Shown here: positions 7,601 to 54,849 of the stretch, in pieces
Layout: every line of letters begins with the position of its first letter
How positions within the stretch are numbered: the stretch's first letter is position 1
Source of the DNA: an uncultured Clostridia bacterium
Lineage (GTDB): Bacteria; Bacillota; Clostridia; TANB77; CAG-508
NCBI GenBank assembly: GCA_944389225.1
Contig: CALXLP010000003.1
Coordinates: forward strand, 31,206-95,205
Direction of reading: 5' to 3'
DNA length: 64,000 nt
The notes under the pieces: generated by a model
The model's input: the letters and a program-made list of their open reading frames with translations, nothing else
Database searches by the model: none
What the model was told of the DNA's origin: nothing
Position numbers and translations under genes: made by a program

Positions 7601-10600
7601 TCGGAAGAAAAACATGGCAATTCTTTAAACAATATATTACCAAAGAAAACAATTATCTAATGCCAGACAATTATCAAGAGGATAGAAAACAAAAAATTGT
7701 TGCAAGGACATCTTCCACTAATATAGGATTATCCATATTAGCGATTGTTTCAAGTTATGATTTACAATATGAAACTTTACCAGATACCATAGATTTATTG
7801 TATAAAGTACTAACTTCAGTCGATAGTTTGCAAAAATGGAATGGACATTTATACAATTGGTATGATACCAAAACAAAAGAACCATTAAGACCAAGATATA
7901 TTTCAACAGTAGATAGTGGAAATTTTGTGGGATATTTGTATGTGACAAAAGCATTTTTAGAAGAAATACAAGAAATATTACAAAGTCACAATATGCTTTT
8001 CCCAGAACAAAATATACAAGATAAAGAAGAAATGATAATCTTGCAAAATCAAATACAAGAAATGCTAGAAATCATTAAAAGAACCATTAATCAAACAGAC
8101 TTTACCTGCTTATATAGTCAGGAACATCAAATATTTTCAATCGGATACAATATTGAAGAAAATAAATTAACAGATTCCTATTATGACCTCTTAGCAACAG
8201 AAGCAAGACAAGCAAGTTTAGTTGCTATTGCCAAAAAAGATATTCCATCAAAACATTGGAATCACTTAAGTAGAACACTAACAGTTTTAGGAAAATATAA
8301 GGGATTAATTTCTTGGTCAGGAACTGCATTTGAATATTTAATGCCAAATATGAATATTCCAAAATACAAAGGGAGTTTGTTAGATGAATCTTGCAAATTT
8401 ATGATGATGAGTCAAATGAAATATGCAGAAGAAATGCATTTACCGTTTGGAGTATCCGAATCTGCATTTAATTTAAAAGATTTACAATCTAATTACCAAT
8501 ATAAAGCATTTGGAATTCCATGGTTGGGATTAAAAAGAGGATTAGCAGATGAAATGGTCGTATCTTCTTATGCTAGTATATTAGCCATTACAGATATTCC
8601 AAAAGAAGTGGTTAGAAATTTAAAAGTATTAGAACAATATGGCATGCATCATAAATATGGATTTTATGAATCTTTAGATTTTACTCCAGAAAGAGTTAGA
8701 AAAGGAAAAGAAGCGGAAGTTGTCAAAACTTATATGGCACATCATCAAGGATTAATTTTATTATCAATCAATAACTTAATTAATCAACTAATTTTACAAA
8801 AACGATTTACGAAAAATCCAGAAATCCAAGCAGTTACTATTTTATTACAAGAAACAATGCCAGAAAAAGCAATTATCACAAAGGAAGATAAAGAAAAGGT
8901 AGAAAAATTAAAATATAAAGATTATGAAGATTATATAGTAAGAACATATACCAAAATAGACGAAAGATTAATCTCAGGAAATGTTATTTCTAATGAAAAT
9001 TATATGGTAGCAATGAACCAAAAAGGAGAAGGAGTAAGTAAGTACAAAAATATATATGTCAATCATTTTAAACGTACTGATGATGATACACAAGGAATCA
9101 TATTTTATATAAAAAGTATAAAGAACAAACAAATTATTAGTTCTAGTTATTCACAAAATATAAAAAATGAAAATCAATATCAAGTTCGATTTATGCCAGA
9201 TAAGAATGAACAAGAGATAATTAGTGGAAATATAAAAGTAAGAATTAAAACAACAGTTGCTTCAAACGAACCTGTAGAATTGAGAAGATTAATATTAGAA
9301 AATTCCGGAAATGAAGAAGAAATTGTAGAATTGACAGGATATTTTGAACCAATTTTAGCACCAAAGGAACAATATTATGCACATCCTGCATTTAATAATC
9401 TATTTTTAGTATATGAGTATGATGAAAAAAATGAAGCAATCATTGTCAAAAGAAAGAAAAGAGAATTAGGGGAAAAAGAAGTTTATTTGACTACAACATT
9501 ACATGCAAGTAGAGAAGATAGAATTGGCGATTTGGAATATGAAATAGAAGAGGAAAAATTTATTGGAAGAGGAAATTTAAAAATATCAAAAATGGTTAAA
9601 GATTCATTACCATTTTCTAAAAAGATAGGACTTGTGACTGAACCAGTAGTAGCCATGAAAAGAACGGTTAAAATAAAGAAACAGGAAAAAGTCGTGATTG
9701 ATTTTATATTATCTGTAGAAGAAGAAAAAGAACAAGCTCTTCAAAATCTAGAAAAATATACATCATTTGAAAATGTAAAAAATGAATTTGAGTTATCAAA
9801 AGCGAGAGTGGAAGCAGAAACAAGATATTTAAATATGAAAGGAAAAGATATTGAAATTTATCAAAAGATGTTATCTTATATTGTGTTTGATGATTCCGTT
9901 AAAAGTGTAGAAAAAGAAAAAATCAATCATACACAAGTTTACAAACAAAGTGATTTATGGAAATATGGAATATCAGGGGATTTACCAATTATATTGGTAA
10001 AAATGAAAAATGCAAATGATGTACAAGGACTAAAAGAAGTATTAAAAGCGTATGAGTATTTTAGAACCAAAAATGTAGAAACAGAAATTGTTATTATGGA
10101 TGAAGAAAAATATAGTTATGAAAATTATGTAAGAGAAGAAATAGATTCTACTATATTAAATCAACATATGGGATATTTAAAAAATATAAAGGGTGGTATC
10201 TTTATATTAAATGAAGAGGAAATGGATAAACAAGATATTACATTTCTAGAATTTATATCTGTTATCACAATCGATTGTGCAAAAGGAAATTTAGAAAATA
10301 ATCTAAAAGAAATAGAAGAAACCTACTTAGAAAATTATAAAGAAATTAGTGAAGAAGAAAATATGAATCAATTTGTTGAAGAAAATACAGAAGATATCAA
10401 TATTTTGAAAGATACAGAAAAATTAAAATATTATAATGAGTATGGAGCTTTTTCAGAAGATGGAAAAGAATATTGGATGTGTGTCAATAAAGAAAAAAGA
10501 TTACCAACTGTATGGTCACACATTATGGCAAATGAAAAATTTGGAACCATTGTAACAGAAAATATGGGAGGATATAGTTGGTATAAAAATAGCAGATTAA

Positions 10601-17898: not shown

Positions 17899-19890
17899 AT
17901 GAATGAAATCAAACTATCAAGTAAGAAAAAAATGAGGAATGTTTTATTTATATCTTTTTTAATTATCATATGTTTGATTGTTAGAATTGGATATATTCAA
18001 TTGATACAAGGGAAAGAATTAAATAAACTTGCTTATGAACAACAAACATTAGATAGAAAAATCAATCCTAAAAGAGGAACCATTTATGACGCAACAGGAA
18101 AAAATATATTAGCCGTTAGTAGTACAGTAGAAACAGTTACAGTCAATCCAGGAAATATTTCTGCTGAAAATAAAGAAAAAGTGGCAAAAGTGTTGTCAGA
18201 TATATTTGAATTAGATTATGAAACAGTATTAAAGAAAGTGAAAAAAAGAAGTTCTATTGAAACTATTGTAAGAAGAGTAGAAAAAGATAAAACAGATGAG
18301 TTAAGAGAATGGATGGAACAAAATAATATTACAACAGGAATTAATATTGACGAAGATACAAAAAGATATTATCCATATAACAATTTGGCGTCACAAATTA
18401 TTGGCTTTTGTGGAAGTGATAATCAGGGATTAGATGGAATAGAAGCAAAATATGAAGAAGAACTAAAAGGAGAGCAAGGAGCGATTCAAAAACATACAGA
18501 TGCAAAGGGAGGAGAAATAGGAGAAGAAGGGGAAAACTATATACCTGCTGTCGATGGAAATGATTTAGTATTAACCATTGATTTAACAATACAATCTATT
18601 GTTGAAAAATATTTAGAGGAAGCTTGTATAGATAATGTTTGTACTGATGGCGGAAGTATTATTGTTATGAATCCACAAAATGGTGATATTTTGGCTATGG
18701 CCAATTATCCAAATTATAACTTAAATGAGCCATATGAACCATATACAGAAGAATTAAAAGCAACTTGGGATTCTTTAGAACAAGCGGAGAAAACAACATA
18801 TTTGCAAGCTGTATGGAGAAATAAGGCGATTGCAGATACCTATGAGCCAGGTTCTGTGTTTAAGTTAATTACAGCCTCAGCAGCACTAGAAGAAGGAATT
18901 ACAGATACAGATAATGAAGGAGAATTTTGTTGCACAGGTGGAATTGAAGTGTCAGGAGTTAGGATAAAATGTTGGAGATATTATAGACCACATGGTTCAG
19001 AAAGTTTAAGGCAAGCTTTGATGAATTCTTGTAACCCTGTTTTCATAGGATTAGGGCAGAAAATAGGTGTAACAAAATATTATGAATATTTGGAAAAATT
19101 CAAATTGCTACAAACGACAGGGATAGATTTACCAGGGGAAGCAGGAAGTATTTTTTTAGCTAAGGAAAAGGCTGGACCAGTGGAGTTAGCAACTATTAGC
19201 TTTGGTCAAAGATTTGAAATTACACCAATACAACTAGCAACAGCGGTATCTAGCATTGCTAATGGAGGAACTAGTATCAAACCAAGAGTGGTTAAACAAA
19301 TTATTGATAGTGAAACAAAAGAAGTAACAGATATTCCGGTAGAAAAAGGAGATACAGTTATATCAAAAGAAACTTCTGAAAAAGTATTAAGTATGATGGA
19401 AAGTGTTGTATCAGAAGGAACTGGTAAAAATGCAAAAGTAGCAGGATATAGAATTGGTGGCAAAACAGGGACTTCAGAAGATGGTGTAAATACGAATAAA
19501 TATGTAACATCTTTTTGTGGAGTAGCACCAATTGACAATCCGCAAGTAGTTGTTTTGGTTACTTTATATAATCCAACAGGTGAAGGAGGACATCAAGGTG
19601 GTGGCGTAGCGGCACCTGTAGGTGGGCAAATATTTAGTGAAATATTGCCATATTTAGAAGTGAATAAAGAAGTATTAGAAGATGATGAAGAAGAAGTGGT
19701 AAATCAAGTACAGGTACCAGATGTGATGGGAAAAACATTAAAAGAGGCAAAACAAATTCTAAAAGAAAATAACTTGGAAATATATTTAGAAAATGAAGAA
19801 ATAGATATGGAAAATACTTATGTAAAAAATCAAATTCCAAGTTCAGGAATTACTGTAAATGAACAAAGTAAAGTGATTATAGAATATTAA
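17899..19890 (+). CDS. Class B penicillin-binding protein (FtsI/PBP2B/SpoVD type) with one PASTA domain
   Basis: PBP dimerisation region, then transpeptidase motifs 'SVFK' (SxxK), 'SCN' (SxN) and 'KTGT'. C-terminal PASTA 'VQVPDVMGKTLKEAKQIL'. Confidence 0.9.
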   Translation: MNEIKLSSKKKMRNVLFISFLIIICLIVRIGYIQLIQGKELNKLAYEQQTLDRKINPKRGTIYDATGKNILAVSSTVETVTVNPGNISAENKEKVAKVLSDIFELDYETVLKKVKKRSSIETIVRRVEKDKTDELREWMEQNNITTGINIDEDTKRYYPYNNLASQIIGFCGSDNQGLDGIEAKYEEELKGEQGAIQKHTDAKGGEIGEEGENYIPAVDGNDLVLTIDLTIQSIVEKYLEEACIDNVCTDGGSIIVMNPQNGDILAMANYPNYNLNEPYEPYTEELKATWDSLEQAEKTTYLQAVWRNKAIADTYEPGSVFKLITASAALEEGITDTDNEGEFCCTGGIEVSGVRIKCWRYYRPHGSESLRQALMNSCNPVFIGLGQKIGVTKYYEYLEKFKLLQTTGIDLPGEAGSIFLAKEKAGPVELATISFGQRFEITPIQLATAVSSIANGGTSIKPRVVKQIIDSETKEVTDIPVEKGDTVISKETSEKVLSMMESVVSEGTGKNAKVAGYRIGGKTGTSEDGVNTNKYVTSFCGVAPIDNPQVVVLVTLYNPTGEGGHQGGGVAAPVGGQIFSEILPYLEVNKEVLEDDEEEVVNQVQVPDVMGKTLKEAKQILKENNLEIYLENEEIDMENTYVKNQIPSSGITVNEQSKVIIEY

Positions 19891-20078: not shown

Positions 20079-23000
20079 TTGAAAGTGAAGTTAAAAAACA
20101 AAAGTAAAGTTATTATTAGCATTATTTTTATGGTAATATTAATAATAGGAATCGTATCAATGTATTTACGAAGTAATACAGAAATTGTATCCTTAGCAGG
20201 AAATTGGTTAAATGCAATGAATGCCAATGTGGAACAAAGAATAGTAGGAAGTGGACTAGAATCAGCATATATTGAATGGGAAAGTGTTGATGGAGCAACA
20301 GGATATAATGTATATATATGTGATGAGTCATCTGGTAACTATGAGCAACTAGATAATGAATTAATAAGAAGATATAAAGATGGAACAGATTCTTATTGGA
20401 GAGCAGATGCTGTTGGTTTAAAAGCAGGAAAATATCATTTTAGAATTGTACCAATCATAAATAATCAAAATGATAGTAGTAAACAATTTGATTCTGATGT
20501 TATAACTGTACAAGCACATGATAGAACAGGATTTGCATGGGTAGATGGAGAAACAACAGGTGCATATAATATAGATGGTACATTAAAAGAAAATGCGAAT
20601 GTTATATATGTTACAGAAGAAACTAAAGATACCGTTTCTTTAGAAGTGCAAACAAGTTCAAATGGGAAAACAGAAACAGCACAAGGATTACAAAATATAT
20701 TGGATTTATATAAAAAAGGATATGATAACACACCACTTGTGATAAGATTTATTGGTAAAGTAACAGATCCAAGTGCATTAGATGGTGGAGATATTGTCAT
20801 TAGTGGAAGTGGTTCAGATAAAAGAATCAATTGTGGAATCACATTAGAAGGAATTGGAGAAGATGCCACTTTATATGGATATGGTATCAGAATCAAAAAT
20901 GCCACAAATGTAGAAATTAGAAATATAGCAGTTATGCTAACAGATAGTGATGAAGGAGATAATATTGGGCTTCAACAAGAGAATGACCATGTATGGGTAC
21001 ACAATTGTGATTTCTTTTATGGAGAGCCAGGAAGTGATTCAGACCAAGCAAAAGGTGATGGAGCATTAGATTGTAAAAAATCAACTTATGTAACATTTTC
21101 ATATAATCATTTTTGGGATTCAGGAAAAAGTAACCTTTTAGGATTAAGTGAAAATACAACAGAAGGATTGTATATCACATATCATCATAATTGGTATGAC
21201 CATTCTGATTCAAGACATCCAAGAATTAGATTTTACTCTGCACATGTATACAATAATTATTATGATGGAAATTCAAAATATGGTGTAGGAGCATGTTTAG
21301 GTTCATCTGTTTTAGTAGAAGGAAACTACTTTAGAAATTGTAAAAAACCAATGATGATATCAATGCAAGGTTCTGACACAAGCGGAACATTTTCTAAAGA
21401 AGATGGAGGAATGATAAAAGCATATAACAATTATATGATAGGACAAGATTCCTATATTCCATATTCAAAAGATAATGAAAGTTTTGATGCTTATGAAGTA
21501 TCAAATATAGATGAAACAGTACCAAGTTCAGTAAAATCATTGCAAGGAGAAAATACATACAACAATTTTGATACATCAAGTATCATGTATGAATATGAAG
21601 CAGATAGCCCAGAAGTAGCAAAACAAAAAGTAGAAACATATGCTGGTCGTTTAAATGGTGGAGATTTAAAATGGGAATTTAATGATTCTAAAGATGATGA
21701 ATCAGATAAATTAAATACAGAACTAAAAAATGCTTTAGAAAATTATGAAACAAATTTATTATCAGTAGGTGGAAATTCTATTGATTCTCCAGAACAGCCA
21801 GAAGATCCAGAGCCAGAACCAGAAGTCATCCCAGTAGAAAATGTAGTCTTAAATCAAAATAATGTAACTTTAAATATTGGAGAAACAACAACATTACAGG
21901 CAACCATAACACCGGATAATGCAACAAACAAAAATGTGACATGGACTTCAGAAGATAGTGATATAGCAAGTGTAGATAAAGATGGGAAAGTGACAGCAAA
22001 AAAAGTAGGAAAAACAACCATAACAGTTACAACAGAGGATGGACAAAAAATAGCAACATGTGAGGTTACAGTTATAGAAAAACAAGACCCAGAGCCTGAC
22101 CCAGAACCAGAAGTCATCCCAGTAGAAAATGTAGCCTTAAATCAAAATAATGTGACTTTAAACATTGGAGAAACAACAACATTACAGGCAACCATAACAC
22201 CAGATAATGCAACAAATAAAACTGTAACTTGGAGTTCAGAAGATAGTGATATAGCAAGTGTAGATAAAGATGGAAAAGTGACAGCAAAAGAAGTAGGAAA
22301 AACAACCATAACAGTTACAACAGAGGATGGAGAAAAAACAGCAACATGTGAGGTTACAGTTATAAAAAAACAAGAACCAGAGCCTGACCCAGAACCTGAG
22401 CCAGAAGTCATACCAGTAGAAAATGTAGTATTAAATCAAAATAATGTAACTTTAAATATTGGAGAAACAACAACATTACAGGCAACCATAACACCAGATA
22501 ATGCAACAAATAAAACTGTAGCTTGGACTTCAGAAAATGAAGATATAGCAAGAGTAAACAATGGTATTGTAACTGCAATAGGACCAGGAGAAACAACCAT
22601 AACAGTAACTACACAAGATGGTCAAAAAACTGCAAAATGTACGATTACAGTAATAGAACCAGAGCCAGAAGAAATTCATGTAGAAAAAGTAGAGTTAAAT
22701 ATGCAAAACATTTCTTTAGAAATTGGAGAAACAGCAACATTAGTGGCAGTTATCACACCAAATGATGCAACAAATAAAAATGTAACTTGGACATCTGAGG
22801 ATGAAAATATAGCAAGTGTAAATAATGGTATTGTAACAGCAATAGGACCAGGAGAGACAATGATAACCGTAACAACAGAAGATGGAGAAAAAACAGCAAC
22901 ATGTAAAATTACGGTTACTGAAGAAGAGGAAGAACTTGTATCAACTATTTCTTATGATTATACAGAACTAACCAATCAAAATGTCACAGCAACCATCACA

Positions 23001-23576
23001 TTTAATAGAGATGATGTAACCATAACTAATAATGATGGAAGTAATGAATATGTTTTTGAAAAAAATGGGACATTTACATTTGAATATATAGATAGTGAAG
23101 GAAATCGTTCTCAAAATATAGCTAGAGTTACCTGGATAGATAAAGAAGGACCACAAATCAATATCAATTATGAAACGATAAATAATGGTAAAGCAGTAAA
23201 AGTAACCATACAAGCAAATGAAGAATTAAAACCAATAGAAGGATGGACATTATCAGAAGATAGATTGACAATTAGTAAGACATTTGATGAAAACCAAACA
23301 GAAACCATCCAATTAAGTGATTTAGCAGGAAATATCGTTGAAACAACTATAAATGTTCAAAATATAGAACAATCAGAAGATGAAAATCAAAATAATGAGA
23401 GTACAACAAATACGATTACAGGAAATACAAATAACTATAAAGATGATACAGTAGCAAACACTATTTTACCAAGTGCAGGACTTTCAATAATTATAAAAGC
23501 ACTTATTGTACTTGTATTACTAGGAACAATTGGTTTCTATATTCGTTATAGATATTTGAAAGGGATAATAAAATAA
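20079..23576 (+). CDS. Cell-surface protein: PL1 pectate-lyase-like domain, 4 Big_2 Ig-like repeats, Ig-like C-terminal region and an LPSAG sorting signal
   Basis: N-terminal signal/anchor. PL1 motifs 'HVWVHNCDF', 'GDGALDCKK', 'SRHPRIRF' and 'HVYNNYYDG'. Four 'LNIGETTTLQATITPDNATNK.VTW.SED' Big_2 units with PEPEPE linkers. The C-terminus is 'LPSAG', a hydrophobic stretch, then 'RYRYLKGIIK'. Confidence 0.85.
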   Translation: MKVKLKNKSKVIISIIFMVILIIGIVSMYLRSNTEIVSLAGNWLNAMNANVEQRIVGSGLESAYIEWESVDGATGYNVYICDESSGNYEQLDNELIRRYKDGTDSYWRADAVGLKAGKYHFRIVPIINNQNDSSKQFDSDVITVQAHDRTGFAWVDGETTGAYNIDGTLKENANVIYVTEETKDTVSLEVQTSSNGKTETAQGLQNILDLYKKGYDNTPLVIRFIGKVTDPSALDGGDIVISGSGSDKRINCGITLEGIGEDATLYGYGIRIKNATNVEIRNIAVMLTDSDEGDNIGLQQENDHVWVHNCDFFYGEPGSDSDQAKGDGALDCKKSTYVTFSYNHFWDSGKSNLLGLSENTTEGLYITYHHNWYDHSDSRHPRIRFYSAHVYNNYYDGNSKYGVGACLGSSVLVEGNYFRNCKKPMMISMQGSDTSGTFSKEDGGMIKAYNNYMIGQDSYIPYSKDNESFDAYEVSNIDETVPSSVKSLQGENTYNNFDTSSIMYEYEADSPEVAKQKVETYAGRLNGGDLKWEFNDSKDDESDKLNTELKNALENYETNLLSVGGNSIDSPEQPEDPEPEPEVIPVENVVLNQNNVTLNIGETTTLQATITPDNATNKNVTWTSEDSDIASVDKDGKVTAKKVGKTTITVTTEDGQKIATCEVTVIEKQDPEPDPEPEVIPVENVALNQNNVTLNIGETTTLQATITPDNATNKTVTWSSEDSDIASVDKDGKVTAKEVGKTTITVTTEDGEKTATCEVTVIKKQEPEPDPEPEPEVIPVENVVLNQNNVTLNIGETTTLQATITPDNATNKTVAWTSENEDIARVNNGIVTAIGPGETTITVTTQDGQKTAKCTITVIEPEPEEIHVEKVELNMQNISLEIGETATLVAVITPNDATNKNVTWTSEDENIASVNNGIVTAIGPGETMITVTTEDGEKTATCKITVTEEEEELVSTISYDYTELTNQNVTATITFNRDDVTITNNDGSNEYVFEKNGTFTFEYIDSEGNRSQNIARVTWIDKEGPQININYETINNGKAVKVTIQANEELKPIEGWTLSEDRLTISKTFDENQTETIQLSDLAGNIVETTINVQNIEQSEDENQNNESTTNTITGNTNNYKDDTVANTILPSAGLSIIIKALIVLVLLGTIGFYIRYRYLKGIIK
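21790..22930 (+). repeat. In-frame tandem coding repeats (about 288-294 bp units, first three nearly identical)
   Basis: GAAGTCATCCCAGTAGAAAATGTAG recurs at about 21822, 22110 and 22404. A fourth, diverged unit starts at about 22677. Confidence 0.85.
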
Positions 23577-23620: not shown

Positions 23621-23840
23621 ATTTGTTGTAGATAAGAAGGATATATGCTACTTGACTGCAAGCTTTGATTATTAAATACGATTAAATTATTTTATAAAAA
23701 ACTAATTGAAATTATTAATTTTTAAAAGTAAAAAAATATAAAAACTCTATACAAAAAATAATTTTCGTTATATAATATGAAGGATTAAATGGAATAATTT
23801 GCATATAATTAAGTATTAATAATCGAAAGGATTGAAAAAA

Positions 23841-25337
23841 ATGAAATTAAAAGAAATGTTAGTAGGTTTAGAAAATTTAAAAGTAAAAGGAGATTTAGAT
23901 ATTGAAATATCTGGAGTTGAAAACAACTCAAAAAATGTAAAGCAAGGATATTTATTTGTAGCAATACAAGGCTTTTCAACAGATGGTCATCAATATGTGG
24001 AAAATGCTATAGAAAATGGTGCAGTAGCTATTATGATACAAGAAGGCTGTAACTTAAAAGGTGCTAAAATACCAGATAATATAACTGTTATCATGGCAAA
24101 AGATACAAGAGAAGGATTAGCTATTGTATCAGATAATTTTTATGATCATCCATCAAGAAAATTTAAATTAATTGGTGTTACAGGAACAAAAGGAAAAACA
24201 ACAACAACGTTTATGATAAAAGAAATATTTGAAAAAGCAGGAAAAAAAGTAGGTTTAATTGGAACAATTGCAACATATATTAATGGAAAAAAAGTGAAAG
24301 ATAGTGATAGAACAACACCAGAAAGTTTAGAATTACAACAAACATTTGATGAAATGGTAAAACAAGGTGTTGAAGTGGTTGTTATGGAAGTTTCATCACA
24401 AAGCTTGAAATTAAATAGAGTAGAGGGATGTAATTTTGATATTGTTGTATTTACAAACTTTTCAGAAGATCATATCAGCCCTAAAGAGCATCCAGATATG
24501 GAGGACTACTTTAATTCAAAATTAAAGTTATTTAAAATGTGTAAAACAGGAATCACAAATGCAGATGATTTACATGGAGCAAAAATACCAAGATTATTCC
24601 CAGATAGCAATATTACAACATATGGAATTGATAATTATGCAAATCTTTTAGCAAAAGATATTACTATTACAAATTCTTATGTGGATTTTAAAGTAAAATT
24701 AAAAGATAAAAATGAAAGAGTAAAAACAGGAATACCTGGAAGGTTTAGTGTATATAATTCATTAGCGGCTATTTGTGTTGCACAAAAATTTGGAATTGCT
24801 CCTGAACCTATAAAAGAAGCTTTGGCAGAGGTGAGAGTACCAGGAAGATCTGAATTAGTAGATAATAAAAGAGAAATACCAATCATGATAGATTATGCCC
24901 ATTCACCAGAAAGTCTAGAAAATATATTACAAGCAACAAAAAGTTATACAAGAGGAAAAGTTATATCTGTATTTGGCTGTGGTGGAGATAGAGATGCTGG
25001 TAAAAGACCAATTATGGGAGAAATATCAGGAAGAATTGCAGATTTTACAATTATTACATCTGATAACCCAAGAACAGAAGATCCTAAAAAAATAGTAGAC
25101 CAAATAGAAGAAGGTATGAAAAAAACAAATGGAAAATATGAAGTCATTGTAGATAGAACAGAAGCAATAAAAGAAGCTATTAAAATGGCTACTAAAAGAG
25201 ACATTGTTATTTTAGCAGGAAAAGGACATGAACCATATCAAGAAATTAATGGAGAAAAATATCCATTTGATGAGAGAGTGATTGTTAGAAACATCATAGA
25301 TGAATTAGAAAATGAAACAAAAAATAAGAAAAAATAA
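23841..25337 (+). CDS. murE: UDP-N-acetylmuramoyl-L-alanyl-D-glutamate--2,6-diaminopimelate ligase
   Basis: 'GVTGTKGKTTT' P-loop, Mur ligase middle and C-terminal domains, and the 'TSDNPRTEDP' (DNPR) motif typical of meso-DAP-adding MurE. ATG 23841 is preferred over TTG 23832. Confidence 0.9.
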   Translation: MKLKEMLVGLENLKVKGDLDIEISGVENNSKNVKQGYLFVAIQGFSTDGHQYVENAIENGAVAIMIQEGCNLKGAKIPDNITVIMAKDTREGLAIVSDNFYDHPSRKFKLIGVTGTKGKTTTTFMIKEIFEKAGKKVGLIGTIATYINGKKVKDSDRTTPESLELQQTFDEMVKQGVEVVVMEVSSQSLKLNRVEGCNFDIVVFTNFSEDHISPKEHPDMEDYFNSKLKLFKMCKTGITNADDLHGAKIPRLFPDSNITTYGIDNYANLLAKDITITNSYVDFKVKLKDKNERVKTGIPGRFSVYNSLAAICVAQKFGIAPEPIKEALAEVRVPGRSELVDNKREIPIMIDYAHSPESLENILQATKSYTRGKVISVFGCGGDRDAGKRPIMGEISGRIADFTIITSDNPRTEDPKKIVDQIEEGMKKTNGKYEVIVDRTEAIKEAIKMATKRDIVILAGKGHEPYQEINGEKYPFDERVIVRNIIDELENETKNKKK

Positions 25338-31146: not shown

Positions 31147-31208
31147 TGAAAAATCAATTGTTTTAGTATATAATAATAGAGGTTAAGAAAAAAGGAGCGA
31201 AATCTTTG

Positions 31209-48019: not shown

Positions 48020-48113
48020 AAAATGAAGCAAATTTTATTACAAATAACTTTTCAGAAAATAACTTATATGTTATTATATAAGTATCTAGATTTTATAAGA
48101 AAAGGGGATTAAG

Positions 48114-48884
48114 ATGAAAAGAAAAATAGCAAGAATTTTTATGATTTGTATAGTACTTATAGTGGTGAATATCATGTTTTTTAATAAAAAAGCATATGCA
48201 TTGGAAAATACATATAAAGGATTTGAGGTAGTTGGACAAATAGAAATACCAAAAATATCTTTAGATTTACCAATATTGGAAACGGTTAGTCAAAGTTCAT
48301 TAACGACATCTGTTGCATTTTTATATGGTGTAGGAATTAATCAAGTAGGAAATACGGTTATTGTAGGACACAATTATCAAAATGGTACATTTTTTTCTGA
48401 TTTAGACCAATTAGAAAGTGGAGATTATATAAAGATAACAGATATGGAAGATAATGTTATCAATTATAAAGTTTATGAAACTAAAATAACCACTCCAGAC
48501 GATGCTTCTTTTTATAATAGAGATACAAACGGAAAAAGAGAAATCACTTTGACAACAACAACTGATGATACTTTAAAACGTTTTGTTGTCTTTGCTTCAG
48601 AAACAACGGATGTTATTGATGATTCTAATGATAACAATAATCAAGACTCATCATCTAATAGCACAGATAATTCTGTTAGTGAAAATCAAACAGATAAAGA
48701 TAATGGTAATTCTAATAATTCCAATATATCATCAACAAATATAATCAATCAAGATAATACAATTACAACAAAAACAGCATTACCAAAGGCAGGAAGAAAT
48801 TTAGTATTGAGTATACTTGCACTTATAACAATCATTGGTATAATCATTAGTTATTATAAATTTGAAAAATATAAAAAAGTTTAA
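48114..48884 (+). CDS. Sortase-fold protein lacking the catalytic Cys (TLTTT instead of TLxTC), with its own C-terminal LPKAG sorting signal
   Basis: N-terminal TM. 'GQIEIPKISLDLPI', 'GNTVIVGHNY' (His) and 'REITLTTTTDD..KRFVVFA' (Arg present, Cys replaced by Thr at codon 48558-48560). An S/N/D-rich linker precedes 'LPKAG', a TM and 'YKFEKYKKV'. Confidence 0.8.
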   Translation: MKRKIARIFMICIVLIVVNIMFFNKKAYALENTYKGFEVVGQIEIPKISLDLPILETVSQSSLTTSVAFLYGVGINQVGNTVIVGHNYQNGTFFSDLDQLESGDYIKITDMEDNVINYKVYETKITTPDDASFYNRDTNGKREITLTTTTDDTLKRFVVFASETTDVIDDSNDNNNQDSSSNSTDNSVSENQTDKDNGNSNNSNISSTNIINQDNTITTKTALPKAGRNLVLSILALITIIGIIISYYKFEKYKKV

Positions 48885-48928: not shown

Positions 48929-48973
48929 AAGTTCTAAAATTTCAATATAATGTTGAAGTTTTAGAACTTTTTT
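48929..48973 (+). terminator. Rho-independent terminator
   Basis: Stem AAGTTCTAAAA / TTTTAGAACTT followed by a T-run. Confidence 0.75.
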
Positions 48974-49040
48974 AATAGAAATACACCTTTTATGTAAAGA
49001 AAACATAAAATATAACAAAAACATAAAAGGAGGAGAGAAC

Positions 49041-49397
49041 ATGTCTAGCTACATAATACAAGGAGGAAATCGACTAGAAGGAACAGTTAAAATATCTGGT
49101 TCTAAAAATTCAAGTTTACCGATTATTGCAGCAACCATATTAAATGGTGGAGAAACCACATTATATAATGTACCCAATATTCATGATACACAAATGATGT
49201 TTGAAATCTTAAGACAAATAGGAGGAAAAGTAACCAAAAAGAAGAATAAAGTCATCATTAATACAAAAGACATTAACAAATATGAAATACCAGAAGAACT
49301 GATGAGACAAATGCGTTCTTCTGTGATTTTTGCAGGAAGTTTGTTAGGAAAATATAGGAAATGTACCTTATCTTATCCAGGGGATTGCGATATTTGA
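49041..49397 (+). pseudogene. murA: murA 5' fragment (UDP-GlcNAc 1-carboxyvinyltransferase residues 1 to about 113), truncated by element insertion
   Basis: Canonical MurA N-terminus 'IIQGGNRLEGTVKISGSKNSSLPIIAATIL' ends '..LSYPGDCDI*' at the junction with the element. Confidence 0.9.
49377..49397 (+). other. attL core
   Basis: CCAGGGGATTGCGATATTTGA matches attR ACAGGAGGTTGTGACATAGGA at 14 of 21 positions. Confidence 0.6.
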
Positions 49398-49458
49398 TTG
49401 ATACATCGGACAAGTTTAAGATAAATGAGTGGATACAGGAATTTAAATAATAAAATAG

Positions 49459-49495
49459 ATAAGCTTTAAAAGTAATATTTTAAGGCTTATTTTTT
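49459..49495 (+). terminator. Rho-independent terminator just inside the left end of the element
   Basis: Stem ATAAGCTTTAAAA / TTTTAAGGCTTAT (1 mismatch) followed by T5. It would stop read-through from truncated murA. Confidence 0.6.
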
Positions 49496-49569
49496 AACCT
49501 TAAAACTATACTAAAAATTATTTTAAAAACCACAAAATTGAATGTGAGGCGAAAGGAGATGTAGAAAAT

Positions 49570-50106
49570 ATGGTAACACAAAAACTAAAAGGACTATGGA
49601 TACCAGTAGAAATTTTATTAAATAAAGATTTATCAGATAAAGAAAAGATAATACTATCTATGATTTTGTATTTAAGCGAAGAAACTAAAAGTTGTTTTGC
49701 CAGTAATAAATATATAGCAAGTATTGTAAATGTAACAGCAAATAGAGTATCTAAAATTATAAGTTCTCTGAAAGAAAAAGAGTATATAAAAGTAAAATTA
49801 AAATATAAAACAGACAGTAAAGAAATAGAGCAAAGACAAATTACACCTATTGTTCAAAATATTAATAGGTATAATTCAAAAAGCCAAGAGGATATTGAAA
49901 CAAATAACTATTTAAATAGTCAAAAACAACAATACCCTATATATAATAAAGACAAAGATATAATAAATAATATAAAAAATAAAAATAATTATAATAAATG
50001 GGACACATGTAAAAAGGAAAATACTTCATATAGAAGCGACAGAAATTACGATGACTTCGATTGGAGTAGCTTATATGCAAATTTAAAAGAGGTTAATTCT
50101 ACTTAA
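49570..50106 (+). CDS. Helix-turn-helix protein, plasmid/phage replication-initiator-like N-terminus
   Basis: 'GLWIPVEILLNKDLSDKEKIILSMILYLS....CFASNKYIASIVNVTANRVSKIISSLKEKEYI' is a winged-helix pattern common in small Firmicute replicons. The tail is N/K-rich. Confidence 0.5.
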   Translation: MVTQKLKGLWIPVEILLNKDLSDKEKIILSMILYLSEETKSCFASNKYIASIVNVTANRVSKIISSLKEKEYIKVKLKYKTDSKEIEQRQITPIVQNINRYNSKSQEDIETNNYLNSQKQQYPIYNKDKDIINNIKNKNNYNKWDTCKKENTSYRSDRNYDDFDWSSLYANLKEVNST

Positions 50107-50135
50107 TATTAGAACTAGCCTCTTTTTAAATTTGT

Positions 50136-50250
50136 CTAAAAAACTATTTATAGTTTTTTAGCAATCAAAAATAAAAATTTGCTTTTTTATTTTTGATTGA
50201 ATGGGGTGTGGGGCAATAGCCCTGCCATACAGACAAACTTGTTTGTCTAG
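50136..50250 (+). promoter_or_regulatory. Candidate oriT (three inverted repeats plus a GTGTGGGGC tract) upstream of the MobV gene
   Basis: Hairpins at 50136-50161, 50162-50199 and 50231-50248. GGGGTGTGGGGCAATAGCCC lies between them. The position immediately 5' of mob is typical for MobV oriT sites. Confidence 0.4.
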
Positions 50251-50302
50251 TATGTTAGACATTCAAAGAATATCTTAAGTAAAAAGGAGGTGCAAAGAAG
50301 AT

Positions 50303-51475
50303 ATGAGTTATGCAATTATAAGAAACGAAAAGATGACTAGAATAGAAGCAAAAGGAAGTTATGTTCATAATGAAAGAAGAACAAGAGGTCATACAAATAA
50401 AGATATTGATTCAGAAAAAACACGTTTGAATTATTACTTAAAGAAAAACGAATTGAGTTATATAAAAGAATTTGATAGATTAAAGAAAGAAAATGATTTA
50501 CAAGGACATATAAGAAGCAACAGTATAATAATGTGCGAAATGATATTTACATCAGATAAAGAATTTTTTGATGAAATTGGAGAAAAAGAAACCAAAAGAT
50601 ATTTTGAAGAAAGTTATAATTTTATATGTAGTTACAAAAATCTTGGAGAAAAAAATATAATATCAGCAGTAGTACATTTAGACGAAGGAACACCACATAT
50701 GCACTTGATATATATTCCAGTAATTCATACAAAAGATAAAGAAAGAAAAGAAATAGATAAAATATGTTGTAGGGATTTTTGGAAAGGTAGAGATAGTTAT
50801 AGGCAATTACAAAATACTTTTTTTGAATATATTACTTCAAAAGGATTTGAACTAGAAAGGGGATTGCCAGTTGAGGAAACAGGAGCAAAACATGAAAAAA
50901 TAGAAAACTTAAAGAAGATGACTAATTTAGAAAATACTAAAAAAGTATTAGATAATATAAAACTTGAATTACCAGAAACACCTAATATAAATGATATTAA
51001 ACTTATAAAATTAAATAGAGAAAAAGTAGAAGATGAAATCATTAAACCAAAAGATAAATTGATTAATGAGTTGTACCAAGAGAATAGGATTCTTCACAAA
51101 GAATTATCAAAACAAGTGAATTTAGTAGATAAAGTAATAAAATATGAAAAAGAAAGAAAAGAAATAATGTATGACAATAAAGAATTGCACAATGAAGTAG
51201 ATAAAATCAAGTCAGAATATAAAGAAAAAGCATTTGATTTAGAATGGAAATATAAAAGTAAAATTAAAAGTTTAGAAAAAGAGAATAGCCATTTGAATAA
51301 GATAATAGATAAATTTTATGAAGTGATGGAAAAATTTATAAAATGGATTTGTAAAAAATTCGATATGGGTGCTGAAGATTATTTAATGCGAGATTTCCAA
51401 AAAGAAACTAATACTTTATTGGATACTGAAAAACAAATAGAACACGAAGCCATAGAAAAGGATTTAGAAATGTAG
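50303..51475 (+). CDS. MobV-family relaxase (Mob/Pre plasmid recombination enzyme)
   Basis: 'MSYAIIRNEKMTR....GSYVHNERR' N-terminus and the 'VVHLDEGTPHMHLIYIPV' (HxDE..PHxH) motif. The C-terminus is coiled coil. Confidence 0.85.
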   Translation: MSYAIIRNEKMTRIEAKGSYVHNERRTRGHTNKDIDSEKTRLNYYLKKNELSYIKEFDRLKKENDLQGHIRSNSIIMCEMIFTSDKEFFDEIGEKETKRYFEESYNFICSYKNLGEKNIISAVVHLDEGTPHMHLIYIPVIHTKDKERKEIDKICCRDFWKGRDSYRQLQNTFFEYITSKGFELERGLPVEETGAKHEKIENLKKMTNLENTKKVLDNIKLELPETPNINDIKLIKLNREKVEDEIIKPKDKLINELYQENRILHKELSKQVNLVDKVIKYEKERKEIMYDNKELHNEVDKIKSEYKEKAFDLEWKYKSKIKSLEKENSHLNKIIDKFYEVMEKFIKWICKKFDMGAEDYLMRDFQKETNTLLDTEKQIEHEAIEKDLEM

Positions 51476-51568
51476 TCTTAAATTAAAGTGTTGAAAAAAA
51501 ATAAATGTAATGTTATAATTTTTTTGGGAATATAGAAAAATATTTTATAGATAATATTTGGAGGAAAA

Positions 51569-52429
51569 ATGGAAAAAGAAGATATATATTTATCAACAGC
51601 GAGTTGGGGAAAATCAGAACCAACATATGAAACCAAACAATTTTTATTAGCGTTAATTATAAAGGAAAAGATTAATAATAAAAAACCAAATATAATAGAT
51701 GCTGGAGCGGGATTAGGTCGAAATTCTATATATTTATCTGAAAATGGATTTGATGTAACAGCAATTGAATATGATGAAGGAGCGATTAATCCGCTTAAAG
51801 ATAATATAAGAGAAAATAATCAGTCAGATAATATAAGAGTTATCAATTTAAACATTATAGATTATTTAAGGAGACAAGAAGATCATAGTATTGATGCAGT
51901 ATTAGATAGTGGAATGTCTCATTATTTAACATTAGATGAAAAAGAAGAATATTTTATGTTGCTAAGACAAAAAATGGCAGAAGACGGATTATTTTCTATA
52001 ACTCATTTTTCAAAGGAAGACAAAAGTGCAAATGGCTTATCAGAAGATCAATTAAGATTATTATTAGAAGGAATGATTGAATTAGATGATATACATTTTG
52101 ACACATGGACTGACTCTATTTCTAAGAGTGAACATTTTGCATATAAAGGATTATTGGCTATGCCAGGTGGTCGTTGCAATGAAATTAAAGATATATATAT
52201 AAGAGTATATGAATTGATTTTAGATAAAAAAATAACAAGTGTGAAACAAATACATGAATATTTAAATGGCCTAAATGTCAAAACACAAATATTGGACAGC
52301 AAAACAATAGGACAAGGTGTAGTAGGTGAAATGCAACAAATAGAAGAAATAGATGCTACTATGTCAGTTCTTCAGGCACATCAACAGATAATAAGAAAAC
52401 AACAAGATGGAAGACAATATGAAAACTAA
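51569..52429 (+). CDS. Class I SAM-dependent methyltransferase with a C-terminal extension of about 90 aa and unknown function
   Basis: Motif I 'IIDAGAGLGRNSIYLSENGFDVTAIEYD' and post-I/II 'AVLDSGMSHYL'. SD TGGAGGAAAA. Confidence 0.7.
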   Translation: MEKEDIYLSTASWGKSEPTYETKQFLLALIIKEKINNKKPNIIDAGAGLGRNSIYLSENGFDVTAIEYDEGAINPLKDNIRENNQSDNIRVINLNIIDYLRRQEDHSIDAVLDSGMSHYLTLDEKEEYFMLLRQKMAEDGLFSITHFSKEDKSANGLSEDQLRLLLEGMIELDDIHFDTWTDSISKSEHFAYKGLLAMPGGRCNEIKDIYIRVYELILDKKITSVKQIHEYLNGLNVKTQILDSKTIGQGVVGEMQQIEEIDATMSVLQAHQQIIRKQQDGRQYEN

Positions 52430-52446
52430 AAAGGAGAAAATAAAAA

Positions 52447-52884
52447 ATGATTGAAAACATAAGTATAGAATATGCTAATGCTTATACAGAAGTTTTAGAA
52501 ATTTTAAGTAAAATGTCAAAAAATGATTATAATAAGATACCTAGAGATATGATACAAGTTTTTGAAATTTACAGCAATAAGGACTATGCTTTTGAATATA
52601 ATTTAAAAAAAGACTTTGACCAACAAGGTATTTCTAAAAGGGCCAAGTTAATTTTAGCAATTCTATTTAGAGACTATTGGGCTAATGATAATCAAAGAGA
52701 AAAAATTATTGCTAAGCAAAATTATGACAGACAAAAACTTGAAGAAGAAAAAAGAAAAATATATAATACGAATGTATTTAAAAATAAAGAAAATAATATT
52801 GAGACAGATGGAATAGAAAATATTTCAGAACAAGTTAATTTGATACAATATGAACATAAAGAGTCAATCATAAAAAAATTATAA
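52447..52884 (+). CDS. Hypothetical protein (145 aa)
   Basis: SD AAAGGAGAAAA. No recognisable motif. Confidence 0.55.
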   Translation: MIENISIEYANAYTEVLEILSKMSKNDYNKIPRDMIQVFEIYSNKDYAFEYNLKKDFDQQGISKRAKLILAILFRDYWANDNQREKIIAKQNYDRQKLEEEKRKIYNTNVFKNKENNIETDGIENISEQVNLIQYEHKESIIKKL

Positions 52885-52906
52885 ATAAACTAAAAAGTAT
52901 ATTTAG

Positions 52907-52945
52907 AAAATAGAACAAGTACTTATTTACTTGTTCTATTTTTTG
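52907..52945. terminator. Bidirectional terminator between convergent cargo genes
   Basis: Stem AAATAGAACAAGTA / TACTTGTTCTATTT followed by a T-run. Overlaps the stop of the minus-strand gene. Confidence 0.7.
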
Positions 52946-54220
52946 CAATATACCTGGCTTAATTTTTGTAATTCTAGCCTAAATTCTTCTATTTTACTAT
53001 CATTATAACTATTTCTTAATTCTCTAGCTTTTTCTGACCATTCTTTAAATTTATTTTCTTTAAATTCTTTAGGATGATTATAGTGTAAACCATGCATCCT
53101 TTTGTATTCCCTATTATATTCCTGCAAAATTAAACTGTTTTTTACTTTCTCTTTTCTTTTATTTAAAGCACCAATTTCTCTGCAAGTTTTTCCTGTATCT
53201 AAATATATATTATTACAATATTTTTGGTCATTTCTGCCTTTTTGATTTTTATTCTTACTAGTAGTTACAGGTATAAATAATTTGCCACAATTTTCACATT
53301 TATTAATTGTAAAATTATTTTGGATTATTTTAAATAATTCAAACCTAATTTGTTCTTCAGCATTAGCTAATTCATACACTTCTTCAGCCATAATATGCTT
53401 TTCTTTTATTAAATTAACTACATCTTCTACATCTAATCTTTTTTCTTGTAATGACAATTCTGCATTACATATATATTTTGTTTTGAATTTTGTATCTAAA
53501 AATAGTGCGTGTGCAGGATTAGTATTTACATAGTGTATATCAAAAACTCTTTTTGCTTCATATAAATATAATCTTTCATTAGTAGATAAGTTTTTTACAG
53601 TAGGGTTTTGAGAATATTTGCTAATCAATTCTAATCTTTCTTTTAAATCAGACTTTTTCTCCATAAAATCTTTTATCAATAAATCTCTAATTGTTTCAAA
53701 AAAATCCATATATTTTTTATGTGTTTTCTTAGATATTTTTTCTATTTTCTGAGTAAATTCGTGCATTATAAGATTTATATTATATTCGTTTTCTTCCAAT
53801 TCTTCAAAAAATTCATTTGGAGAGTATTCTGGATTTTCAATAAAGCATCCAATATCAGATTTAAATAATAAATCAGACCTAAATACTTTTGTATTATAGG
53901 TTTTTACAATTATATCTATTAATAATTGAGTATAGAAGTGTGTATAAGGAGAAAATTCTAAACACGCTCTAACTATTTGAAACATTTTAAAGAAACAATC
54001 TAATTTTTCATCCATTATATCAGATTCTTTTGCAGTTGATACAAGTTCTATTAATTGAGAGTATATATTTTTCAATCTTTCAAATTCTTTATTATCCATT
54101 ATAGCAAATTCATATAGTTTATCTCCAATATTATATTCAAAATCATGAATTGCACCAAAATATTCTCCGATTATTTTTTATTATAATTTTATTATTATCA
54201 ATTGCGAAATTAGTTATCAT
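52936..54220 (-). CDS. Hypothetical protein with a C-terminal Cys cluster. The N-terminal ~40 codons and SD lie in another frame (+1 frameshift in a homopolymer run).
   Basis: The track ORF 52936-54099 has no SD. ATG at 54220 follows GGAGGAAG and gives MITNFAIDNNKIIIK.., which joins the main frame (..IIGEYFGAIHDFEYNIGDKLYEFAIMDNKEF..) if one A of the A6 run (plus-strand T6, 54174-54179) is removed. Contains 'CENCGKLF...QKYCNN...C'. Confidence 0.6.
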
Positions 54221-54393
54221 TACAGCACTTCCTCCATTTAAAAAATAGACTATAACTATTTTGAATTTTACTTTAGCTATAGACTTATAAAAATCTATTT
54301 ACAAGCCATTTTAAGGCTTTTATAATAAAAATAGATAATAGAAAATAGTAATTATAAATAACTATTTTCTATAATAGTATAGCACATTGAAAA

Positions 54394-54422
54394 TTGAATA
54401 GCAAACTACAAGTACATATAAT
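54394..54422 (+). promoter_or_regulatory. Near-consensus sigma-A promoter inside the element
   Basis: TTGAAT (54394-54399), a 17-nt spacer, then TATAAT (54417-54422). Confidence 0.5.
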
Positions 54423-54583
54423 GATACTTTTGTCTGGCTAACGTGATGTAAAGGGGCAATTCTCTAAAAAGAGGAATGAGGGCAAATCTCATATGGGTAT
54501 TTGATTTACCACTTGTAGTTTTAGTAATAAGGACAAACAAGAAACGAATACAATTGATAGAAAGGTAGGTGAATACTCTGAAA

Positions 54584-54736
54584 ATGACAAAAAAGAATGA
54601 TAAGGATAAGAAGCAAAAAGACAAACTACCATTTGCAGTTTTTATATGTCCAAAATCAAATGTGGGTGAATTAGATGATTATAAACAGGTATTCACCGAT
54701 ATTATATCTGATAGAATACAAGAAAAATATAAATAA
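54584..54736 (+). CDS. Small hypothetical ORF (50 aa; below the ORF-track cutoff)
   Basis: MTKKNDKDKKQKDKLPFAVFICPKSNVGELDDYKQVFTDIISDRIQEKYK*. The SD (AGGTAGGTG) is weak and distant. Confidence 0.3.
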   Translation: MTKKNDKDKKQKDKLPFAVFICPKSNVGELDDYKQVFTDIISDRIQEKYK

Positions 54737-54805
54737 AAAAATGAGAACAAATTTTCGCAAACATATTGAAAAATTGTAAGAAATATGATATAAATAAGAG
54801 GATTC

Positions 54806-54830
54806 AACTGTTCGGAATTTCCGAACAGTT
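54806..54830. promoter_or_regulatory. Perfect 12+1+12 palindrome (operator-like) upstream of the DinD-like gene
   Basis: AACTGTTCGGAA-T-TTCCGAACAGTT, 20 nt upstream of ATG 54850. Confidence 0.6.
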
Positions 54831-54849
54831 AAAAAAGGAGATGAGATAT

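Follow-up and report, generated by a model that had tools for sequence, protein, structure and literature searches.

Sortases are defined by a Cys-His-Arg active site and staple proteins onto the Gram-positive cell wall, and interest in them comes from virulence and anti-infective research, where they are targets, and from protein engineering, where they serve as tools. Their peptidase family in MEROPS (C60) also includes entries listed as non-peptidase homologues. Herein, we describe a gene at positions 48114 to 48884 on the + strand of a 64,000-nucleotide stretch of contig CALXLP010000003.1 (assembly GCA_944389225.1, an uncultured Clostridia bacterium of gut type, positions 31,206 to 95,205); this whole stretch, with a G+C content of 28%, is called the window. 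Alignments and a structural model confirm that the fold of the encoded protein is truly that of a sortase and that the nucleophilic Cys is missing; the protein ends in what reads as a cell-wall sorting signal of its own. With a probability of roughly 60%, we read it from its sequence as a non-catalytic pseudo-sortase that is itself a substrate of the sorting pathway and that, once attached to the wall, would act as a peptide- or peptidoglycan-binding module.

The sortases themselves (PF04203/TIGR01076, MEROPS C60) share with this protein the eight-stranded barrel, the IEIPKI...LPI strands, the GHN His, the TLxT strand, the Arg of β8, and the β6/β7 loop. The nearest solved structures are B. anthracis SrtA (2KW8), class C enzymes (8T28, 6IXZ), L. 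rhamnosus SrtA (7F87), and C. perfringens SrtD (4D70). Unlike these enzymes, the window protein has no Cys in its predicted mature form, starts with a signal-peptide-like segment rather than a signal anchor plus linker, and carries a linker plus LPxTG-type signal that is found in none of its 201 Cys-containing relatives. LPXTG wall proteins (S. aureus SasF among them) show the same succession of signal peptide (a predicted one here), passenger, low-complexity stalk, pentapeptide, hydrophobic segment, and basic tail; here, however, the passenger is a sortase fold and not an adhesin, enzyme, or immunoglobulin-like domain, and the hidden Markov models (HMMs) for such anchors remain unmatched. Class C (pilus) sortases have a type-I topology comparable to the predicted one, of signal peptide, domain, and C-terminal hydrophobic helix, also seen in the Cys-containing relatives P0028 and P0191, but the window protein differs from class C in lacking the Cys, in having an LPxTG motif before the helix, and in scoring far below the cut-off of the class C HMM. 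Finally, it resembles pseudoenzymes at large, dead homologues that serve as binding or regulatory modules, in which catalytic residues are lost while the fold and the substrate-contacting elements are kept under purifying selection.

A sortase fold without its nucleophile

The gene and the parts of its product are as follows, together with the one other protein of the window that ends in a sorting signal.

48114..48884, + strand: pseudo-sortase gene, 256 codons plus stop, ATG start (open reading frame (ORF) list)
48102..48108, + strand: Shine-Dalgarno-like AAGGGGA, 5 nt before the ATG (read from the sequence)
48114..48200, + strand: predicted cleavable signal peptide, residues 1-29 (inspection, -3/-1 rule)
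48213..48608, + strand: sortase-fold beta-barrel of eight strands, residues 34-165 (AlphaFold2, Foldseek, phmmer)
48369..48371, + strand: His86 (CAC) in VGHNY, the catalytic-His position, retained (alignments)
48546..48560, + strand: TLTTT in place of TLxTC, residues 145-149 (alignments and AlphaFold2 model)
48579..48581, + strand: Arg156 (CGT) in KRFVVFA, the conserved sortase Arg at the start of β8, retained
48609..48779, + strand: disordered S/N/D/T-rich linker or stalk, residues 166-222 (predicted local distance difference test (pLDDT) <50 for 171-227)
48780..48794, + strand: LPKAG sorting pentapeptide, residues 223-227 (TTA CCA AAG GCA GGA)
48798..48857, + strand: hydrophobic, presumed membrane-spanning segment NLVLSILALITIIGIIISYY, residues 229-248 (inspection; helix 228-255, pLDDT ~80)
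48858..48881, + strand: positively charged tail KFEKYKKV (inspection; a KYK-type tail is kept in the clade)
20079..23576, + strand: pectate lyase with four Big_2 domains, LPSAG, a transmembrane segment, and a basic tail; the same variant with Ala at position 4

All sortase landmarks named in the initial annotation were recovered, including the N-terminal strands GQIEIPKISLDLPIL (residues 41-55). The Pfam Sortase family (PF04203) matches residues 43-163 with E=1.5e-25 and 89.8 bits (cut-off 26.6), and the general sortase model of NCBIfam, TIGR01076, scores 58.9 bits, above its cut-off of 39.35. The class-specific NCBIfam models all stay below their cut-offs (class C 65.3 against 160, class D 48.7 against 165, class E 48.9 against 160, and class F 22.8 against 166 bits). 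Among solved structures, the top phmmer match in the PDB is 2kw8, B. anthracis SrtA (E=1.7e-14). An AlphaFold2 model built from 68 homologues has pLDDT above 90 for residues 31-160 and about 84 for residues 161-170; it predicts a helix at residues 2-23 and a barrel of eight strands, with β7 at 142-149 and β8 at 156-164, starting at Arg156. When this model was compared with the PDB by Foldseek, all 50 of the 50 matches listed were sortases; they fall into classes A, C, D, and E, and their target-normalised TM-scores reach 0.81.

Of the sortase catalytic triad (PMC11231552), the His and Arg positions are occupied as usual, by His86 and Arg156. HMMER alignments to solved sortases place the Cys of TLxTC opposite Thr149 (LTLVTC of 8t28 against ITLTTT), the model puts this residue at the active-site end of β7, and ITLTTTTDD, residues 144-152, is the motif in which the Cys had been said to be replaced by Thr. 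The codon arithmetic given at that time does not hold: ACA (48558-48560) lies three substitutions, not two, from a Cys codon (TGT/TGC), and it is the next codon, ACT for Thr150, that needs two. The sole Cys of the protein, C12, does fall in the N-terminal hydrophobic segment, as had been stated; the segment itself, though, looks like a cleavable signal peptide rather than a membrane anchor. It consists of MKRK, a 19-residue hydrophobic core, and the boundary KKAYA/LE, read as a secretion signal by inspection, so that cleavage after AYA would leave the mature protein free of Cys.

An error at the nucleophile codon is ruled out. The identical protein occurs on at least 13 contigs, and the four shown derive from four different samples. 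In orthologues that are 77-96% identical, residue 149 is T, S, or A; within this close lineage it alternates between ACA (Thr), TCA (Ser), and Ala. One orthologue, L005 (85% identical), stems from a GTDB species-representative metagenome-assembled genome (MAG) of an uncultured Clostridia bacterium and has TCA for Ser. As ACA is three substitutions from a Cys codon and dozens of related Cys-less sequences exist besides, it is scarcely conceivable that a sequencing or assembly error at a Cys codon, or a mis-called ORF, could account for the gene; nothing came to light in favor of such an artefact.

A Cys-less family with a changed architecture

The window protein belongs to a group that has lost the Cys as a whole. 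Among its 120 best database relatives, P0001-P0026 and P0030 lack it, and otherwise, from P0027 on, these relatives are ordinary TLSTCTDD sortases that end a few residues past the Arg strand. The nearest Cys-containing sortases, from uncultured Clostridia, are 55-60% identical in the domain and begin with a transmembrane segment and a linker of about 70 residues. The Cys-less clade extends down to about 41% identity; its complete members, with the exception of P0008-P0011, end in LPK[AT]G, LPYTG, or IPQTG followed by a helix and a KYK-type tail, and K-K-x-Y-A-L-E is kept across the clade at the predicted end of the signal peptide. The linker varies in both length and sequence, and repeats lengthen P0015 to 342 residues.

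A profile of the clade was searched against 1.84 billion cluster representatives. Some 40 of the 150 best matches lacked the Cys; in its place stood T, S, A, N, P, D, V, K, I, E, or L, and several of these proteins also had another residue (R, N, L, Q, Y, M, or S) instead of the catalytic His. In members whose signal peptide and sorting signal are both intact, the nucleophile position holds S, T, A, N, P, or V, and P0014 has His in place of the Arg of β8. Because the position varies in this way and the His is lost in several members, we regard the family as one without a conserved nucleophile.

Loss of the Cys is accompanied by gain of the sorting signal. In the 258 relatives whose domain is complete, the tripartite signal is present in 33 of the 57 Cys-less and in 0 of the 201 Cys-containing proteins (Fisher p ~1e-26, a descriptive value for related sequences that is uncorrected for phylogeny). 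The domain also starts earlier, at a median residue of 33 in the Cys-less proteins against 99 in the Cys-containing ones. Taken together, these changes point to a switch in topology from a membrane-anchored enzyme to a secreted, C-terminally anchored cargo. P0028 and P0191 retain the Cys, have a short signal-peptide-like N-terminus and a C-terminal hydrophobic segment, and show no LPxTG; they may stand midway between the enzyme anchored at its N-terminus and the pseudo-sortase anchored at its C-terminus, or they may reflect the ancestral state.

The idea that the Cys was lost only once, in a common ancestor of the Cys-less forms, was considered and set aside. In a rough neighbour-joining tree with Fitch parsimony, calculated without support values, one Cys-less clade of 24 members includes the window protein, and up to about 18 further small Cys-less groups lie elsewhere, the number of independent losses being uncertain.

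Conservation and selection

Forty-nine Cys-less domains were compared column by column with 165 Cys-containing domains. Their conservation matches that of true sortases except at Cys149, His86, Tyr88, and Arg89, and the conserved columns include the IEIP strand, N76, G79-N80, F94, G103-D104, Y118, L146, T148, and D151, as well as R136-D137-T138-x-G140 in the β6/β7 loop. In sortase-substrate complexes, it is this loop, the β7 strand, and the Arg that touch the sorting signal. The Arg at position 156 is kept in 45 of 49 Cys-less domains (160 of 165 with Cys), whereas the His at position 86 is kept in 32 of 49 compared with all 165 of the Cys-containing ones. A catalytic dyad free of constraint, in a fold whose substrate-contacting elements are kept, is the classical signature of a pseudoenzyme.

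Substitution rates lead to a similar picture. For six pairs among the window, L005, L014, and L015, the Nei-Gojobori ratio of nonsynonymous to synonymous substitution rates (dN/dS) is 0.16-0.26 in the domain and 0.3-0.9 in the linker plus anchor of the same lineages, while ten neighbouring chromosomal genes, compared between the window and L005, have values of 0.02-0.26. Judged by these ratios, the Cys-less domain is under purifying selection, somewhat more relaxed than that on housekeeping genes, which argues for a maintained role of a non-enzymatic kind.

The initial annotation had left the choice between a catalytically dead protein and a Thr-dependent one. The first of these is supported by the lack of any conserved nucleophile, the additional loss of the His, and the selection on the domain. 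Thr as a conserved nucleophile is disfavored by the range of residues at position 149: the alignment shows no clade-wide conservation of Thr, as T, S, and A are swapped among orthologues, intact members have S, T, A, N, P, or V, and the His is replaced by R, N, L, or Q.

Sorting signal and proposed attachment to the wall

At the C-terminus, the tripartite signal that had been recognized at the outset was upheld: LPKAG is followed by about 20 hydrophobic residues and KFEKYKKV, and the arrangement is conserved across the deep clade. Within the pentapeptide, L223 is found in at least 90% of sequences, P224 in most, and G227 in all, and the spacing to the hydrophobic helix and the K/R-rich tail is canonical. 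The pectate lyase at 20079-23576 likewise ends, as had been reported, in LPSAG with a transmembrane segment and basic tail; it is the only other sorting-signal protein within the window. In a relative genome, L011, the pseudo-sortase has LPKTG and a second small substrate has LPKTG as well. The Thr or Ala variant of the motif thus follows the genome (in two genomes only), as would be expected if the resident sortase processes the pseudo-sortase.

Ala at the fourth position is a known working variant: sorting by LPKAG is documented for S. aureus SasF (PMC3398289), and LPXAG proteins have been recovered from the surface of S. haemolyticus (PMC7137321). Among anchor-related models, the protein matches NF053819 alone (an LPXTG surface-protein family; E=0.0017), weakly and without reaching the cut-off. 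We infer with good reason that a resident sortase would anchor the pseudo-sortase to the wall.

Proposed function and alternative explanations

Cys-less sortase domains also occur as parts of larger proteins. P0167 combines leucine-rich repeats of the BspA type, the Cys-less domain, and an LPQTG anchor; in P0151 the domain is followed by Big_2 and LPKAG, and P0152 has Cys-less domains in tandem. The domain stands behind dockerins in P0226 and P0258, last in P0177 (after CHAP, Bsp-like, ricin, and dockerin domains), and between a BlaR1-type M56 membrane domain and an M23 peptidase in P0290. P0168 is likewise listed among the multi-domain extracellular proteins with such a domain. As these places are usually held by binding or targeting modules, the fusions favor a non-catalytic, ligand-binding role. 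The substrate-binding or decoy function suggested in the initial annotation is plausible; these fusions lend it indirect support, as do the retained Arg156, TLxT strand, and β6/β7 loop.

For the window protein, we accordingly picture the following course. The precursor would be exported by the Sec pathway and would lose its signal peptide by a cut behind AYA. A genuine sortase, whose gene would lie elsewhere in the genome, would cleave LPKAG between Ala and Gly and join the protein to peptidoglycan, so that the barrel would be displayed at the cell surface on a flexible stalk of about 60 residues. There, the former substrate groove of the sortase, with the conserved RDTNGKRE loop between β6 and β7, the TLxT strand, and Arg156, would most likely bind a ligand, be it a peptide that resembles a sorting signal or a stem peptide of peptidoglycan. 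Candidates for the physiological role are adhesion or aggregation, the docking of other proteins, a decoy function, and sensing.

Several observations weigh against this reading. The C-terminus gives no match to Pfam Gram_pos_anchor or the NCBIfam LPXTG-anchor models at E<=1, and the scan for a true sortase next door, which covered ORFs of at least 70 residues in the 64-kb window with a family HMM and phmmer (class B not being specifically modelled), returned the pseudo-sortase gene alone. There is no conserved operon partner, synteny being limited to relatives at least 77% identical, and the whole-gene dN/dS of 0.34 is the highest among the neighbours. For a protein with a covalent link to the wall, binding to the wall would, moreover, seem superfluous. 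Two lineages look as if they were in decay. In the one comprising P0018, P0025, and P0030, a 1-nt insertion splits the signal peptide from the domain and the His is changed to Arg; the signal peptide (MRKLLLKVFIIFLLVFVFCSFRYVYG, followed by LESTYQGFDVV) lies in another frame than the domain, whose downstream frame of 228 residues is intact. The loci concerned (L012 580-700, L013 7890-8010, and L008 ~7000-7100) come from three independent assemblies, of which L012 and L013 have the identical insertion and L008, a GTDB representative MAG, has the same truncated reading frame; this gene is probably a recent pseudogene. In the other lineage, P0008-P0011, the motif reads LLKAG and the basic tail is missing. 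Such decay indicates that the function is dispensable in at least some hosts. At the locus of P0010 (L015 3001-3726), the ORF stops directly after the hydrophobic segment and is followed by Bro-N and DUF4258 genes without murA, and the basic tail appears to have been clipped by the inserted element.

Instead of being transferred to the wall, the protein might stay tethered in the membrane, with the C-terminal helix as a type-I anchor, LPKAG unprocessed, and the dead domain held near the sorting machinery, for instance by regulating it or by competing for sorting signals or lipid II. A short N-terminus of the same signal-peptide-like kind is combined with a C-terminal hydrophobic segment, but no LPxTG, in P0028 and P0191, suggesting that the helix may predate the motif, and both LLKAG without a basic tail in P0008-P0011 and the silent anchor HMMs would agree with a tether. 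We hold this to be unlikely, considering that L-P-x-[TA]-G stands directly before the helix, with canonical spacing and a K/R-rich tail, throughout the clade down to 41% identity, that the signal is absent from all Cys-containing relatives, and that the motif variant co-varies with other substrates of the same genome. We would likewise give little credit to a functionless remnant, i.e., an inactivated sortase gene nearing its loss. The missing catalytic Cys, the frameshift of the P0018 lineage, the degraded signal of the P0010 lineage, and the top whole-gene dN/dS could all be taken as its marks; set against them are reading frames, signal peptides, and sorting signals that have stayed intact in many lineages diverged to 41-60% identity after the loss of the Cys, a domain dN/dS of 0.16-0.26, conservation equal to that of true sortases outside the catalytic dyad, a coordinated change of architecture rather than random decay, and a very confident AlphaFold2 model.

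It is, in our estimate, highly improbable that the protein works on the wall as a Ser/Thr-type transpeptidase or hydrolase, using Thr149 (Ser in relatives) with His86 and Arg156. All three residues are present in the window protein, and T and S are the commonest at the nucleophile position (29 of 49 Cys-less relatives). However, A, N, P, V, D, K, I, E, and L are found there too, A, N, P, or V even in members with an intact signal (P0014, P0026, P0149, P0150, P0151, P0156, and P0157), orthologues at least 77% identical differ in having T, S, or A, and the His has gone from several lineages. A secondary alcohol at the end of a strand, without a tuned base, would in addition be a poor substitute for the sortase thiolate. 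The wall-attached, ligand-binding pseudo-sortase remains the explanation that we prefer. As a broader and frankly tentative proposal, which we rate as possible though rather doubtful, the Cys-less barrel could be an unrecognised extracellular recognition domain that arose repeatedly when a Clostridial housekeeping-type sortase lost its Cys-His dyad and kept the groove. It would be used on LPxTG stalks, on dockerins, and in peptidoglycan hydrolases and BlaR1-like sensors of gut- and rumen-type Clostridia, with sorting-signal-like or stem peptides as ligands.

Genomic context

In this lineage, the pseudo-sortase gene lies between an S66 LD-carboxypeptidase gene and murA, an order that is syntenic in L005, L014, and L015, and the surrounding division and cell-wall cluster includes a penicillin-binding protein (PBP) gene, murE, mraY ... 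ftsQ, DUF881, and ftsA. The wall-anchored pectate lyase is located amid this cluster as well, with the PBP gene (17899-19890) on one side and murE (23832-25337) on the other. The gene is chromosomal, within a dcw-type cluster, and an origin from a plasmid or phage was rejected; megablast of the stretch at 44-54 kb gave no match in PLSDB, and tblastn gave distant class C/D sortases only. A conserved operon partner was sought and discarded as an idea, the contexts of P0014, P0015, and P0018 being mutually unrelated. At the 90%-identical locus L014, three small genes (100, 328, and 117 residues; 1183-2927) without Pfam matches stand between the S66 peptidase gene and the pseudo-sortase, and these are absent from the window.

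Upstream of the gene, a weak sigma-70-like site (48049-48077) is no better than chance expectation. Downstream, a consensus scan found no intrinsic terminator; an AT-rich inverted repeat, GTTCTAAAA...TTTTAGAAC, with a T-run (~48931-48976) was rejected as one for having too few G-C pairs.

An insertion of about 8.2 kb (49398-57599) splits murA into the parts 49041-49397 and 57785-58522, and at the orthologous loci L005 and L014 the gene is intact (420 residues). The inserted DNA encodes an HTH_36 protein, a Mob_Pre relaxase, a TehB-like methyltransferase, DUF6076, and Bro-N, together with a large serine recombinase that is itself split into the ORFs 55935-56708 and 56899-57609. The insertion has the look of an integrative mobilizable element. 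A search for its attachment (att) sites gave no clean direct repeats. The same arrangement is seen on the metagenome contigs L001-L004.

Elsewhere in the window, a 2745-residue ORF (4606-12843, + strand) combines a glucoamylase-like domain with a C-terminal GH94 supersandwich and catalytic domains. Cyclic beta-1,2-glucan synthase-like giants are built in this way, and such an architecture is unusual for a low-GC Clostridia genome.

Novelty and significance

In the literature that is searchable as full text (most subscription journals lie outside it), no Cys-less sortase homologue, sortase pseudoenzyme family, or LPXTG protein with a sortase domain is described, and the sole paper containing both "sortase" and "pseudoenzyme" is unrelated. 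As database entries, Cys-less homologues are probably not new; the family, its switch of architecture, and its modular use are apparently undescribed.

Since it lacks the nucleophile, the window protein falls outside the definition of a sortase enzyme, and it should not be filed or annotated as one. Pfam and TIGR01076 nevertheless label such Cys-less proteins "sortase", which would amount to a systematic annotation error that inflates the sortase counts of Clostridia MAGs. As an evolutionary case it is a clean one, in which an enzyme would have become the cargo of its own pathway. If our reading is true, the sortase barrel has been put to a second use, that of a binding module, and proteins or cells could be docked non-covalently at the Gram-positive surface in a way that would be new. 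The same barrels would then be natural, catalytically silent domains that bind LPxTG or peptidoglycan, and a natural LPxTG-binding scaffold of this kind may be of use in biotechnology.

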